NCBI GenBank assembly: GCA_038208115.1
Contig: JBBQZC010000007.1
Span: 1 to 61,691, forward strand
Reading direction: 5' to 3'
DNA: 61,691 nt
Origin: Candidatus Moraniibacteriota bacterium
GTDB lineage: Bacteria > Patescibacteriota > Minisyncoccia > Moranbacterales > GCA-2747515
In this document: positions 51,861-61,691 of the stretch, in pieces
Position numbering within the stretch: position 1 is the stretch's first letter
How the letters are laid out: every line of letters begins with the position of its first letter
Notes under the pieces: generated by a model
Seen by the model: the letters and a program-made list of their open reading frames with translations, nothing else
Told to the model about the DNA's origin: nothing
Database searches by the model: none
Program-made: the position numbers and the translations under genes

Positions 51861-52865
51861 ATGAAAATTTTAGTAACAGGTGGTGCAGGATTTATCGGTA
51901 GTAACTATATTCACTATATTTTAGAACAGTACCCAGAAGATCAGATTATCAATCTGGACCTTTTGACATATGCGGGCAATGCTGCAAATTTAAGTTCAAT
52001 CGAAAAACATTCACAATATACATTTATAAAAGGTGATATATGCGATATTGCACTCGTTGATCGTCTTATAAAAGACGTGGATGTTATTGTGCATTTTGCA
52101 GCAGAATCACATGTGGATCGCTCAATCATGGATAGCAGTTCATTTGTACGGACAAATGTAGTGGGCACCTTAGCACTTCTTGAAGCAGCAAAAAAAAATG
52201 GAAACAAAAGATTTCATCATGTATCCACAGATGAGGTATTTGGCTCTCTGAGCAAAGATGCCTCTGCATTCAATGAATCTACTCCCTATGACCCACGAAG
52301 TCCATATAGCGCGTCTAAGGCTGCGTCTGATCATCTTGTGCGAGCGTACTATCATACGCACGGGCTTCCGATTACTATTACAAATTGCAGTAACAACTAT
52401 GGTCCATATCAGTTTCCAGAAAAATTAATTCCGCTTTTTGTGTCTAATCTCATTGATGGAAAGAAAATCCCAATTTATGGCAAAGGTGACAATATTCGTG
52501 ATTGGCTCCATGTGAAAGATCATTGTATAGCGATTGATCGTGTAGTGCGTGATGGCAAAATTGGAGAAACATATTGTGTCGGCGGGAATGCAGAACGTAC
52601 CAATATGCAGATTACAAAAATCATACTCGATGCAATGGGTATGGATGAAAACATGATTGAATATGTGGTAGATCGTAAAGGACATGATAAACGGTATGCA
52701 ATTGATAATACGAAAATTAAAACAGAGCTTGGTTGGGAGCCATCGGTGACATTTGAAAAAGGGATCGCCGATACAATTCAGTGGTTTAGAGATAATGAAA
52801 AATGGTGGCGTGACATAAAAAGTGGTGAATATCAGGAATATTACAAAAAACAGTATGACAAATAA
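51861..52865 (+). CDS. rfbB: dTDP-glucose 4,6-dehydratase
   Basis: GGAGFIGSN, HFAAESHVDRSI, STDEVFG, YSASK, SNNYGPYQFPEKLIP. Confidence 0.97.
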   Translation: MKILVTGGAGFIGSNYIHYILEQYPEDQIINLDLLTYAGNAANLSSIEKHSQYTFIKGDICDIALVDRLIKDVDVIVHFAAESHVDRSIMDSSSFVRTNVVGTLALLEAAKKNGNKRFHHVSTDEVFGSLSKDASAFNESTPYDPRSPYSASKAASDHLVRAYYHTHGLPITITNCSNNYGPYQFPEKLIPLFVSNLIDGKKIPIYGKGDNIRDWLHVKDHCIAIDRVVRDGKIGETYCVGGNAERTNMQITKIILDAMGMDENMIEYVVDRKGHDKRYAIDNTKIKTELGWEPSVTFEKGIADTIQWFRDNEKWWRDIKSGEYQEYYKKQYDK

Positions 52866-53774: not shown

Positions 53775-54080
53775 ATGTCACTGGCATGTTTTAAGAATGA
53801 AAAGGCTATGCGGGAATTGTCAGAAACGGCAGATTTTTTGAAGGTGATTGCCGAAGAAAATCGTCTTAAGATTCTATGCATGCTAAAAGATGGAGAAAGA
53901 TGCGTGTGTGAAATTTGGCAGTATTTGGATTTGCAACAAAACCTCACATCACATCATCTAAGGATATTAAAAGATTTCAAATTGATATCATCGCGCAAAG
54001 ATGGTCTGAAAGTTTATTATTCATTAAATAAAAAAATGTTCAATGCACATATAAAATTATTAGTAAATCACTTACGATAA
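53775..54080 (+). CDS. arsR: ArsR/SmtB family repressor
   Basis: RLKILCML...CVCEI...SHHLRIL...GL. Confidence 0.9.
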   Translation: MSLACFKNEKAMRELSETADFLKVIAEENRLKILCMLKDGERCVCEIWQYLDLQQNLTSHHLRILKDFKLISSRKDGLKVYYSLNKKMFNAHIKLLVNHLR

Positions 54081-54084
54081 AATT

Positions 54085-55053
54085 ATGAATATCTTTTATC
54101 CTATACAATTATTTTCCGACCTCATTACGTATCACGCATTTGGTTTATCACATGATGAGTTACTTGGTGAAGTAATAAATTATTTTATCTTTGATGTGAT
54201 AAAGATATTTATTCTTCTCGGAATTATTATATTTGTTGTATCTTTGATACGATCATATTTACCACAAGAAAAAATTCGCAACATACTTGCATCTCAAAGT
54301 AAGGTTGTAGGGCATATTTTGGCCTCACTCATTGGCATTATTATGCCATTTTGCTCTTGCAGTGCAGTGCCGCTTTTTTTGGGGTTTGTAGAAACAGGTG
54401 TACCACTAGGAATCACATTTTCATTTTTGGTTGCAGCACCAATGATTAATGAAGTGGCTCTTGCAATGCTTTTTGGCAGCTTTGGATTGAAAGTTGCACT
54501 CATTTATATTGGAAGTGGTCTTCTGATTGCAGTGGTGTCTGGTATGGTAATCGGACATTTGAAAGTGGAATATCTCTTGGAAGATCTTGGACATGGTAAG
54601 AGATATAAAAAAGATGAGAGCATGATTAAAATGACATGGGAAGATCGTGTGAGTTATGCATGGAATTATTCAATTAAGATTATAAAAAAAGTTGGTGTAT
54701 ATATTGTGATTGGTGTGGGTCTGGGTGCATTAATCCATGGGTATGCACCTGCAGATTTTTTGGCGCAGTATGCTGGAGCAGATAAATGGTATGCCGTGCC
54801 ACTTGCGACTCTTGTAGGAATTCCATTGTATTCTAACGCTGCTGGTGTGATGCCAATCGTAAATGTGCTTTTTGAAAAAGGTGTAGCGCTTGGAACGGTG
54901 TTAGCATTTATGATGGCAGTCACAGCTTTGTCATTGCCAGAATTTTTGATTTTGCGAAAACTGATGAAGCCAAAACTCATCATGATTTTTGCAGGAGTTG
55001 TGGGCGTGGGGATTATTTTTACAGGCTATATATTTAATGCAATTAAATTGTGA
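54085..55053 (+). CDS. DUF318/ArsP-type permease
   Basis: PFCSCSAVP, FLVAAPMINE, GIPLYSN, ALSLPE. Confidence 0.9.
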   Translation: MNIFYPIQLFSDLITYHAFGLSHDELLGEVINYFIFDVIKIFILLGIIIFVVSLIRSYLPQEKIRNILASQSKVVGHILASLIGIIMPFCSCSAVPLFLGFVETGVPLGITFSFLVAAPMINEVALAMLFGSFGLKVALIYIGSGLLIAVVSGMVIGHLKVEYLLEDLGHGKRYKKDESMIKMTWEDRVSYAWNYSIKIIKKVGVYIVIGVGLGALIHGYAPADFLAQYAGADKWYAVPLATLVGIPLYSNAAGVMPIVNVLFEKGVALGTVLAFMMAVTALSLPEFLILRKLMKPKLIMIFAGVVGVGIIFTGYIFNAIKL

Positions 55054-56075: not shown

Positions 56076-56456
56076 ATGAATAAACAAACAATATTCAGCA
56101 TTATTGCTGTTGGTGTGATTTTAAGTGGTGTTGGATTATATTATCTTTTGCCAGATGAATCAGTAAAAAGTGTTTTGCCGACAGATATTGTATTTTACTA
56201 TGGTGATACGTGTCCACATTGCAAGAAAGTAGAAGAGTATGTCATACAAAATAACATCCATGACCAAATTCCGTTTGTGGAAAAGGAGGTGTATAACGAT
56301 GCACAAAATGCCAAAGAATTAGAAGCTGTAGCGGAGGCATGTGGTATAGATCCGATGAAAGTCGGTGTGCCATTATTGTGGAGTAACAAAAGTTGCCTCG
56401 TGGGAGATGCAGATATCATTGCTTTTTTTCAAGAAAAAATTAGTGTAAAACAATAA
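56076..56456 (+). CDS. membrane-anchored thioredoxin/glutaredoxin-like protein
   Basis: N-terminal TM, CPHC, GVP cis-Pro motif. Confidence 0.85.
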   Translation: MNKQTIFSIIAVGVILSGVGLYYLLPDESVKSVLPTDIVFYYGDTCPHCKKVEEYVIQNNIHDQIPFVEKEVYNDAQNAKELEAVAEACGIDPMKVGVPLLWSNKSCLVGDADIIAFFQEKISVKQ

Positions 56457-58984: not shown

Positions 58985-60214
58985 ATGCAAAATTTCATTT
59001 ATGGTTTATTAATAACATTGTGTTTTCCAGGTATTATTTGCGCTGTAAATAATACAAAACCACAAATAGATCAGCAACAAAAAGGATCTTTTATGACACA
59101 GGCAACTATTGCACAAAATACTTTTGCTGTGCCAACCATGATTGATGTGCCTCTTGTATTTGAAAGTCAGATGTTGTCTGAAGTTGCTGTGGTAGATAAT
59201 TCTGATGTTGTGGTACCATCGACAATTATCACAAATACAGAATATAGTCCTCTTCATTTTACGACTGAAGATTCTTATGCAAATACGAGTGCACAAAATA
59301 TGACTGATGGCGATCAGGATACTTTTACGGAATTTCCTTTTACTGAAGATGAATCAATAGGAAATGAAACAATCGTATCTATAACAGATCAGAATAATAA
59401 CGAGAAAAATATTCAGGAAAAAGTTGCAGTCGTATCTGAAAAAAATACGGTGAATATAGACATAATATCAAATCGTGCATTTGTAACGGATTCATTTACA
59501 TTGATTTTTGATACACACATTGCAAAGCCAACGCATATCCGTGTTGCATCTGTTGATGTCTCTGGTAAAGAGCATATTTTACTCCCTGAAAAATTTTATT
59601 CTCAAGACACAATCGTCTTTCCTGAAGAAAAAACAAATCATTATCGCATAACTTTGAAATACAGGAAGCCTCTTCGCATCAATGAAATAGTATTTAATGA
59701 AAAAAATGCTCCTCAGACAATAGAAAGATCTGTACGATTTATCGCTCAACCACAAATATCATACATGATCTACTACAATACAAATAATCATGTCAATCTA
59801 GTACAGCAAGAGTCACCAAGTTTTAACACAAAAATAAATGTCCCGATTGTACACTCAGTTGAAGTCAGCAATAATCCGCTGTACAAAAAAATTGATTCAG
59901 ATAAAGATGGTGTTATCGATCGTGATGATAACTGTGTCGATGTGGAAAATGCTGATCAGATAGATAAAGATAGTAATGGTATAGGTGATGCATGTGAAGA
60001 CTTTGATCTTGATGGAATAATTAATGTGAGGGATAATTGTCCTGATGTGCCAAACAAAAATCAAGTCGATAAAGATTTTGATAAGATTGGTGATGTCTGT
60101 GATGCAGAGGAAAGTCGTTTTATGGAAAAGTATCCATGGATCCCTTTTACAGCTCTAATCCTTGTTTTTGGCATAGTAGTATTATTGATTTTAAAAACTT
60201 TGCAAAAGAAATAA
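58985..60214 (+). CDS. surface protein with thrombospondin type-3 (Ca-binding) repeats
   Basis: Signal peptide; DSDKDGVIDRDDNC..NADQ.D.D.NGIGDAC repeated twice; C-terminal TM. Confidence 0.88.
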   Translation: MQNFIYGLLITLCFPGIICAVNNTKPQIDQQQKGSFMTQATIAQNTFAVPTMIDVPLVFESQMLSEVAVVDNSDVVVPSTIITNTEYSPLHFTTEDSYANTSAQNMTDGDQDTFTEFPFTEDESIGNETIVSITDQNNNEKNIQEKVAVVSEKNTVNIDIISNRAFVTDSFTLIFDTHIAKPTHIRVASVDVSGKEHILLPEKFYSQDTIVFPEEKTNHYRITLKYRKPLRINEIVFNEKNAPQTIERSVRFIAQPQISYMIYYNTNNHVNLVQQESPSFNTKINVPIVHSVEVSNNPLYKKIDSDKDGVIDRDDNCVDVENADQIDKDSNGIGDACEDFDLDGIINVRDNCPDVPNKNQVDKDFDKIGDVCDAEESRFMEKYPWIPFTALILVFGIVVLLILKTLQKK

Positions 60215-60218
60215 TTGT

Positions 60219-60578
60219 ATGAAAAAGATTATTTTTGTCGCGATAGTAGTAGCTATTCCTGTTCTGGTAATTATATATGGGGTATATTATTTTGGACCGT
60301 ATCAGCAGCAAAAAGAAATATCACTTGTAATGGATGAATTGAAGACATCATATTATAAAGGAGTGGCTTCTGTGTGCTATAAAAAAAAGATTTCACAAAA
60401 TACGTGTTGCTTGGAATCGGTCAAAGAAATGTCGCGCATAAAAGGACGGTTGGCAAATGAACCTATTTGTGGAGACCTTTCCAAAGATACTTTAAAATGT
60501 AATGGATCGTATGAATGGTGTGTTCCTGCACATAGTTCAAAGAAAGATGATAACGATGGAGGATTGGCAATAAATTAA
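60219..60578 (+). CDS. membrane-anchored 6-Cys hypothetical protein
   Basis: N-terminal TM; C...CC...C...C..SYEWC.P. Confidence 0.7.
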   Translation: MKKIIFVAIVVAIPVLVIIYGVYYFGPYQQQKEISLVMDELKTSYYKGVASVCYKKKISQNTCCLESVKEMSRIKGRLANEPICGDLSKDTLKCNGSYEWCVPAHSSKKDDNDGGLAIN

Positions 60579-60771: not shown

Positions 60772-61691
60772 ATGCAAAAAATATTGATTCTAGGGGCAAA
60801 AGGAATGCTGGGGCAAGAATTGGTCCGAGTATATAACGATGGTATGTATGATGTGACGGCATGGGATAGAGAAGATATTGATGTAACAGATTTTGATGTG
60901 TTGCATCAAAAAATCAATGATTTGTGGCCAGATGTAATCTATAATGCAGTCGCATATAATGCGGTTGATGCATGTGAAAATGATGATGAATATATAATAG
61001 CAGATCAGCTCAATGGGGTGTTCCCAGGTGAACTTGCAAAGATAGCAAAAAATCTTGATGCAACACTTGTGCATTATTCTACGGACTATGTTTTTGATGG
61101 TGAGCGGCCAATGTATCCTGAGGGAAAAAATCCAGGATGTTGTGGAAATGGATGCTCGGGGTGTATGTACAAGGGTCCGGAAGATACGTTAGAGTATTTT
61201 GCGTATCATGAGGGTGATGTACCTCGCCCAATCTCTCGCTATGGCATGACGAAACTCCACGGAGAGCAAGCGATTGAAAAAAACATGAATAATTATTATG
61301 TAATCAGACTCTCAAAATTATTTGGTAAACCAGCAACTTCGATCGCAGGTAAAAAAAGTTTTTTTGATTTAATGTTGGATTTGGGCAAAAAAAATGATGA
61401 AGTAAAGGCGGTGAACGGCGAAATAAGTAAATTTACGTATGCGCCAGATTTGGCATATGAAAGCAAAAGAATAGTTGACGCACATTTATCATATGGCATA
61501 TATCACGTGGCAAATGAGGGCGCTGCTACATGGTATGATGGGGCAGTGGCGCTTTATGAGCTCGCAGGATTGAAGACACGTATCATTCCTGTATCATCTG
61601 ATACATTTCCACGCCTCGCAAAACGACCATCATCTTCAGTTCTTAAAGTTACCAAAATTCCGCCCATGCGTCATTATCGCGATGCCCTGCG
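60772..61691 (+). CDS. rfbD: dTDP-4-dehydrorhamnose reductase family protein, 3'-truncated by the window edge
   Basis: Manual translation (absent from the ORF track): MQKILILGAKGMLG, AYNAVD, STDYVFDG, YGMTK, GIYHVAN, AKRP. Confidence 0.92.
   Translation, partial: MQKILILGAKGMLGQELVRVYNDGMYDVTAWDREDIDVTDFDVLHQKINDLWPDVIYNAVAYNAVDACENDDEYIIADQLNGVFPGELAKIAKNLDATLVHYSTDYVFDGERPMYPEGKNPGCCGNGCSGCMYKGPEDTLEYFAYHEGDVPRPISRYGMTKLHGEQAIEKNMNNYYVIRLSKLFGKPATSIAGKKSFFDLMLDLGKKNDEVKAVNGEISKFTYAPDLAYESKRIVDAHLSYGIYHVANEGAATWYDGAVALYELAGLKTRIIPVSSDTFPRLAKRPSSSVLKVTKIPPMRHYRDAL

Follow-up and report, generated by a model that had tools for sequence, protein, structure and literature searches.

The gene for deoxythymidine diphosphate (dTDP)-4-dehydrorhamnose reductase (RmlD) that closes contig JBBQZC010000007.1 of a Candidatus Moraniibacteriota bacterium (assembly GCA_038208115.1) encodes an enzyme in which the loop between strand beta5 and helix alphaF is enlarged by 29 residues with a conserved Cys-rich core. 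The window, as used here, is the whole stretch of DNA analysed, 61,691 nucleotides in length (positions 1 to 61,691 of the forward strand), and the features discussed are collected in Table 1. The enlarged loop probably flanks the active site and would be pinned by a putative four-ligand site, most likely holding a structural zinc ion, a reading to which a probability of roughly 55 % can be attached. The RmlD variant is new, robust, lineage-wide and accessible to experiment, but departs only modestly from a familiar enzyme and does not amount to a new kind of system.

The window corresponds to contig C7 of a 1.3-Mb genome in 40 contigs (37 % G+C), which was recovered from a sediment metagenome. 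The last 113 nt of this contig (window positions 61579-61691) are identical to C17:1-113, indicating that the two contigs abut, and the final eight codons of rmlD, ending in DALREYLNEQK and a stop codon, are found on C17, giving a complete joined protein of 314 amino acids (aa). Family-profile search matched this protein over its whole length to PF04321 (220.3 bits against a cut-off of 27; residues 3-296), while phmmer searches matched it to the RmlDs in the PDB with E-values between 1e-43 and 1e-20. The AlphaFold model has a mean predicted local distance difference test score (pLDDT) of 95.5, and its best Foldseek matches are all RmlDs (1VL0, 3SC6, 4WPG and 8G22; template modelling (TM) scores of 0.80-0.90), with values of 0.83 and 0.90 for 1VL0 and 3SC6, respectively. 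Both the GxxGxxG nucleotide-binding motif and the triad T104/Y157/K161 are intact and conserved in 121 homologues, in which S103, Y106 and F108 are invariant, and residues 156-171 form a helix in the model. The triad of the Salmonella enzyme is T104/Y128/K132 (PMC4832382), with Y157 and K161 here corresponding to Y128 and K132. The closest named homologues occur in Moranbacteria and Parcubacteria-group Patescibacteria, and no second rmlD gene is present in the genome. The original prediction had named the product an RmlD, which agrees with the profile and PDB matches, the fold and the intact motifs, and the protein is predicted to be a working, NADPH-dependent last enzyme of dTDP-L-rhamnose synthesis.

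The in-frame insertion in this protein is confirmed. Alignment to every solved RmlD using phmmer/HMMER is broken into two segments, residues 1-112 and 144-306, and the spacing between the S-T-D-Y and Y-G-x-(S/T)-K motifs is 59 residues, compared with 29-31 in about 120 canonical relatives. The insert had been placed at positions 61105-61200 and its Cys codons at 61138-61164, coordinates which proved exact, as did its location between catalytic residues, with the 29 extra residues situated after Thr104 and before Tyr157/Lys161. The insertion begins six residues past the S-T-D-Y segment carrying the catalytic Thr, and the loop thus probably borders the cleft of the active site. An AlphaFold model had been proposed as a check, and in it the insert forms an ordered loop devoid of helices and strands (pLDDT 77-91; 84/77/91 in successive ten-residue blocks, compared with 79/62/74 in a homologue with a different ligand set, the Cys3His class described below). 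Such an ordered, irregular modelled loop would fit the appearance of metal knuckles. A profile search of PDB sequences with the insert motif gave no match at E ≤ 10, none of the solved RmlDs has the loop, and the beta5-alphaF loop is not described in the text of the paper on GacA (4WPG).

Three arrangements of potential ligands could be distinguished among the insert-bearing homologues. The Cys4 class (CCxxxCxxC, in the form C-C-G-x-G-C-x-x-C-(M/Q/S)-Y; 94 sequences) is typical of the family of the window's enzyme (f1), and 92 of its 94 inserts contain exactly four Cys. In the Cys3His class (CxxxCxxCxxH, in the form G-C-x3-C-x2-C-x-L-H; 22 sequences, seen in families f2 and f149) Gly takes the place of the first Cys, with a His three residues past the last one, while the CCxxxCC class (C-C-G-G-G-C-C; 5 sequences, seen in parts of f3 and f1) carries its fourth Cys at position 129. 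Among the 121 aligned homologues (52-85 % identity), C124 never varies, and conservation reaches at least 90 % at C128, C131 and P113. Exactly four potential ligands are present in 121/128 insert-bearing sequences, and the loss of C123 to Gly is paired with the downstream His, in 22 sequences. A ligand count that is retained while the positions of the ligands shift is characteristic of a four-coordinate metal site, and the compensatory exchange of C123 and His is what a tetrahedral site would predict. The Cys pattern had been described as being of a metal-binding kind, which is consistent with the four Cys/His ligands kept across these homologues. The exceptions comprise a short, deleted form (P0063), a degenerate insert (P0052) and a few Cys-free loops (P0123, P0126 and P0139), and they show that RmlD can do without the module. 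The positions at which RmlDs with and without the insert differ in conservation were general clade markers only, and no clear packing partners emerged from them. In the 1.3-Mb genome, rmlD is the sole real open reading frame (ORF) with the pattern CCGxxCxxC, which, with the conservation of the Cys residues, places the motif beyond chance.

The degenerate sequence P0052 (locus L048, genome G404) derives from the same genus as the window and has an insert of equal length (VGVFCDDACVKYTCENSG, FCDDACVKYTC) with three Cys at altered spacing, showing that the module can decay while the RmlD enzyme remains intact. Unrelated, Cys-free inserts of 16-22 residues, for example QKMEGITEETMGMWTKAGQFRGFPENY, occur at the same point in the RmlDs of loci L012 (G176) and L013 (G193) of the distant family f40, and the Cys-free loops of P0123, P0126 and P0139 are likewise found at this place. 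The beta5-alphaF loop is thus a recurrent insertion hotspot in the RmlDs of Patescibacteria. A second insertion, of seven residues (PATSIAG, residues 186-192; window 61327-61347), distinguishes the window's enzyme from solved RmlDs (FGKPATSIAGKKSFF, compared with YGDG-NNF in 1VL0), and the pLDDT falls to 84 at this point. This insertion also occurs in insert-free relatives such as P0133 and is hence independent of the Cys loop.

The original prediction had called for an alignment of homologues to establish how widespread the insert is. Almost every one of the 120 best homologues, which share 52-85 % identity, has a Cys-rich insert at this spot, so that the insert is widespread in one lineage and its Cys residues are conserved, rather than being unique and unconserved. 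In a library clustered at 50 % identity, the insert forms are a handful of representatives among many insert-free RmlDs which are 40-56 % identical. When a tree of 257 sequences was computed from an alignment stripped of the insert columns, all 128 insert-bearing sequences fell in a single clade of 132, and the insert label requires four changes on this tree, compared with a mean of about 86 when shuffled. For the genome samples, one continuous match to the RmlD query, as opposed to a split match, was used as a proxy for the insert. This was confirmed in 58 fetched loci, in which continuous high-scoring matches correspond to a Cys-rich insert and split matches to canonical spacing. RmlD is encoded in 95/400 reference genomes sampled evenly across the phylum, and a continuous match with a Cys-rich loop occurs in only four of these, all of which belong to the window's own order. 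Within that order, RmlD was found in 275/300 genomes, with about 160 continuous and about 113 split matches as counted from the table. Absence of the insert is concentrated in family f148, most of f151, parts of f3 and genus g356. The distribution and the tree point to a single origin of the insert in an ancestor of one order of Patescibacteria, and the picture is one of a single gain followed by several losses; the tree is unrooted, and the direction of change is not provable from it.

Selection on the insert acts at the level of the amino acids. In 33 codon-aligned genes the conserved Cys at positions 124, 128 and 131 are encoded by TGT and TGC in ratios of 24/9, 18/15 and 19/11, respectively, while the Gly and Pro residues of the insert make use of all four codons. 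The ratio of non-synonymous to synonymous differences (pN/pS) is 0.39 in the insert and 0.30 in the rest of the gene, with pS at approximately 0.71 and synonymous sites saturated. The free switching between TGT and TGC, together with a pN/pS close to that of the remainder of the gene, argues for selection on the encoded residues. An alternative would be a selfish, palindromic DNA repeat inserted in frame, comparable to the Rickettsia palindromic elements, or else neutral expansion of the loop, with the Cys and Gly residues a by-product of the DNA. This would accord with the insertion hotspot and its unrelated Cys-free inserts, and with a G+C content slightly higher in the insert (0.46) than in the gene (0.40). 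It is nevertheless extremely improbable, given that the Cys residues are fixed despite saturated synonymous sites, that the insert DNA does not fold into a significant hairpin (z = -1.64; 14/200 shuffles fold equally well), and that a hairpin signal is likewise missing from seven loci representing all three ligand classes (z from -1.5 to +1.7). Furthermore, no inverted repeat is present in 61105-61200, the genome holds no other copy of the insert at the DNA or protein level, and the motif-coding pattern, sought across 300 genomes of the order, does not exceed background level outside rmlD. The last of these is a rough check, as the frame-agnostic DNA pattern search is noisy and its backwards-read control gives similar counts. 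On the basis of the folding, repeat, copy, codon and order-wide pattern tests, a palindromic DNA element was rejected as an account of the insert in its present state. In one Cys3His-class locus (L004, G077), a small palindrome (CCGGACATTCCGG) is formed by the codons for P-D-I-P-E, within the MPDIPEPEG segment that precedes the Cys core, while the equivalent peptide of L057, PELPEP, is encoded without a palindrome. A palindrome of this kind is therefore likely to be a by-product of the peptide.

These features can be accommodated by a scheme in which the beta5-alphaF loop of RmlD gained about 29 residues in an ancestor of one Patescibacteria order, and the enlarged loop would be held in shape by a small metal site with four ligands. 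C124, C128 and C131 would provide three of these, with the fourth being C123 in the window's family, the His three residues past the last Cys elsewhere, and Cys129 in the third group. The metal would most likely be zinc, with a purely structural part to play, namely rigidifying a long surface loop close to the sugar-contacting S-T-D-Y segment. The insertion, its single origin and conservation, the upkeep of four ligands and selection on the protein emerge from the data themselves. We infer metal binding, the identity of the metal and a structural rather than regulatory role from four considerations in favour of structural zinc: the ketoreductase reaction needs no electron carrier, His can stand in for Cys, the four thiols of the CCxxxCC class lie within seven residues, closer than a cluster would favour and more apt for a single ion, and the region is ordered but irregular in the AlphaFold model.

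Several observations weigh against a structural zinc site. The Cys-bearing part of the insert is modelled at moderate confidence only (pLDDT 62-77), and the coordination of one ion by two adjacent Cys is uncommon. Four insert-less sequences and several degenerate ones, among them P0063 and P0052, lie inside the insert clade, and the Cys module is thus dispensable in some lineages. In addition, C-x3-C-x2-C is also the spacing of the [4Fe-4S] ligands of radical S-adenosylmethionine (SAM) enzymes and the sediment source was probably anoxic, which makes iron a live alternative.

That the Cys core binds a [4Fe-4S] or [2Fe-2S] cluster, possibly shared between subunits, and forms a regulatory site, as the original prediction had suggested, through which the activity or stability of RmlD responds to oxygen or redox state, would draw on this invariant spacing, on the retention of a fourth Cys or His ligand (four ligands in 121/128) and on the origin of the organism from sediment; a ligand set of three Cys and one His is also known in some Fe-S proteins. 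An NADPH-dependent ketoreductase does not, however, need electron transfer, and the CCxxxCC class breaks the C-x3-C-x2-C spacing, placing four Cys within seven residues, an arrangement better suited to a single ion than to a cubane. Profile searches with the insert matched no Fe-S family, and several lineages have either lost the loop or retain it in degenerate form, so that an iron-sulphur cluster appears unlikely. A wider proposal, in which the loop is a redox-active metal centre, either Fe-S or an oxidant-labile zinc-thiolate, that switches the synthesis of dTDP-rhamnose, and hence of envelope glycan, according to oxygen or redox state, is considered unlikely. If true, it would represent the first sugar-nucleotide short-chain dehydrogenase/reductase (SDR) with a regulatory metal site, in anaerobic, host-dependent bacteria, and the easily assayed RmlD would offer a first biochemical handle on what is bound by the motif of the orphan Oxidored-like domain found in human mitochondrial OXLD1.

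The Cys residues might instead bind no metal and serve as a thiol/disulfide redox switch, or as structural disulfides, altering the shape of the loop. Vicinal CC and CxxC are classic redox-active arrangements, and a glutaredoxin-like ORF (56076-56456) is located 4.5 kb upstream of rmlD, with a weak family match of 27.7 bits against a cut-off of 88.55. Replacement of C123 in combination with a downstream His is readily understood for metal ligation but hardly for disulfides, it is a ligand count of four rather than an even number of Cys that is maintained, and RmlD is a cytoplasmic enzyme, all of which render this explanation quite improbable.

The window's RmlD resembles the canonical enzymes (1VL0, 3SC6, 4WPG GacA and 1KBZ) in its fold (TM 0.83-0.90), Rossmann motif, Thr/Tyr/Lys triad and RmlA/B/C partners, while the Cys-rich loop of 29 residues that separates the catalytic Thr from the Tyr is missing in all solved structures. 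Medium-chain alcohol dehydrogenases possess a structural zinc lobe, in which four closely spaced Cys are located in a protruding surface loop away from catalysis, and this lobe has been lost in some lineages while the enzyme was kept. By analogy, the RmlD insert may be likened to this lobe in belonging to a nicotinamide-dependent enzyme, in having four close Cys in a loop and in the loss of the site in some lineages. It differs in that the alcohol dehydrogenases belong to the medium-chain dehydrogenase/reductase rather than the SDR superfamily, and in Cys spacing and position in the fold. The CX3CX2C loop of radical-SAM enzymes shares the C-x3-C-x2-C spacing of the invariant part of the insert. 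RmlD, however, has neither a radical-SAM fold nor a Pfam match to that family, and the radical-SAM cluster has a site left open for SAM, whereas the insert has a fourth protein ligand and its CCxxxCC class departs from the spacing.

The original prediction had interpreted the insert as an Oxidored-like module (PF09791, as in OXLD1) grafted beside the active site. As bait for this family, probe peptides of our own were written around the PF09791 motif (52-57 bits against PF09791), and these retrieved 93 genuine members, from plants and Xanthomonadales-type bacteria. C-C-x-x-G-C-x-x-C is invariant in an alignment of 38 of the genuine members, and the window's core conforms to it. The family signature given in the original prediction, P..CCGSGCxxC(V)(W), was therefore correct, as both the probe scores and this invariance attest. 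The Pfam scan that had been proposed gave 14.4-18.8 bits for the window's insert, below the cut-off of 24. PF09791 was matched by 21/60 inserts, of which a few with CCGSGC just reach the cut-off (highest seen 24.1 bits), and 20/60 match FeoB_associated, an unrelated family rich in Cys and Gly. When the insert alignment was compared by hhalign with the genuine PF09791 members, the probability was 85 % (E-value 6e-6) over 30 columns, which fell to 0.4 % when the nine-residue core was masked, while a reversed target gave 25 %. Neither the N-terminal nor the C-terminal flank alone gave any hhalign match to PF09791.

Shared ancestry and function with the Oxidored-like module would thus draw on the identical CCxxGCxxC core, the matches of about a third of the inserts and the hhalign result, yet the similarity collapses once the Cys core is masked, and FeoB_associated is matched about as often. 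No free-standing relative of the insert of 24-75 aa was found among 5.8 billion proteins, and PF09791 does not occur above its cut-off in the window's genome or in 14 control genomes, the genuine members being found in other taxa. A grafted Oxidored-like domain is consequently very improbable and was rejected. Members of PF09791 (human OXLD1, plant UPF0651 and small Xanthomonadales proteins) resemble the insert in the CCxxGCxxC core, usually preceded by a Pro and with an aromatic residue two positions after it. They differ in being a free-standing or N-terminal domain of 46 residues with a PPEKPLP lead-in and a V-W-D-x-Y-x-E-L helix, both of which are missing in the insert. The two therefore share a motif, probably on account of common chemistry, rather than a domain. 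A literature search on OXLD1 and PF09791 returned no biochemistry of the motif, and the comparison thus provides no mechanism. The genuine members of Pseudoxanthomonas and Dokdonella (P0346-P0364) are free-standing proteins of 48-70 aa, which would be convenient for metal tests of CCxxGCxxC.

The insert also affects annotation. Against the NCBIfam rmlD equivalog model TIGR01214 (cut-off 224.05), the full 314-aa protein scores 217.6 bits in two stretches, and removal of 27 insert residues raises this to 228.3 bits in a single stretch. The sub-threshold score is thus attributable to the insert alone, and the generic database name of these proteins, "NAD(P)-dependent oxidoreductase", to their being pushed under the rmlD naming threshold. 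Searches of the literature at hand revealed no Cys-rich or metal-binding insert for RmlD or for any extended SDR acting on nucleotide sugars, no link between a structural zinc site and an extended nucleotide-sugar SDR, and nothing relevant on CCGSGC or on RmlD in Patescibacteria. The insert-bearing proteins accordingly form a large, undescribed RmlD subfamily, present in about 60 % of the RmlD-bearing genomes of one Patescibacteria order. Should the loop bind metal, it would represent a rare metal site added to an extended SDR, and its three ligand arrangements and several natural losses would constitute a natural experiment on the origin and upkeep of such a site. A metal bound here could also inform the Oxidored-like/OXLD1 family, with which the insert shares the nine-residue core, homology not being established.

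Table 1. Positions in the window of rmlD, its sequence features and rmlB.
Feature	Position	Strand	Basis or remark
RmlB (dTDP-glucose 4,6-dehydratase)	51861..52865	+	TIGR01181 492 bits (cut-off 365); PF16363 303 bits
rmlD (dTDP-4-dehydrorhamnose reductase)	60772..61691	+	Cut by contig end; ORF 60772-61689 open at window end
Rossmann dinucleotide-binding motif G8-A-K-G11-M-L-G14	60793..60813	+	Translation; G8, G11 and G14 at least 90 % conserved in 121 homologues
S103-T104-D105-Y106-V107-F108, strand beta5 with catalytic Thr104 (61081-61083)	61078..61095	+	Aligns to STDYVF of solved RmlDs
Lineage-specific loop insert R112-F143 (RPMYPEGKNPGCCGNGCSGCMYKGPEDTLEYF)	61105..61200	+	29 residues beyond canonical RmlD
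Cys core C123-C124-G-N-G127-C128-S-G-C131, proposed four metal ligands	61138..61164	+	Conservation in homologues
K134, position holding His in the Cys3His class (C123 to Gly)	61171..61173	+	Alignment A1, 22 sequences
Y157-G-M-T-K161, catalytic Tyr and Lys (YxxxK), start of helix alphaF	61240..61254	+	Y157 and K161 invariant in 121 homologues

The remaining genes of rhamnose synthesis are scattered. RmlB is encoded 8 kb upstream of rmlD, with no shared operon, and RmlC on contig C1 (246 bits, above the cut-off). The sole RmlA-like gene, a nucleotidyltransferase on C10 (G000:C10:7606-8397), scores 233 bits against the rmlA equivalog cut-off of 360. It covers positions 1-264 of the 286 in the profile and may encode a short-form or divergent glucose-1-phosphate thymidylyltransferase. 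The pathway is hence predicted to be complete but dispersed across the genome, with RmlA assigned as RmlA-like only. An rml operon was rejected, as rmlD is flanked by unrelated genes; downstream, contig C17 encodes ribosomal proteins S12 and S7, a DUF1189 protein and EF-G, and no rhamnose genes. Two ORFs are located just upstream of rmlD. The first (58985-60214) encodes a protein of 409 aa that contains thrombospondin type 3 (calcium-binding) repeats and is anchored to the membrane at its C-terminus. The second (60219-60578) encodes a protein of 119 aa which has a hydrophobic helix at its N-terminus and several Cys, and matches no family. Further upstream (53775-55053), a gene for an ArsR/SmtB-type metalloregulator (101 aa) is directly followed by one for an ArsP_1-type permease (322 aa), which together look like a small metal- or metalloid-responsive pair.

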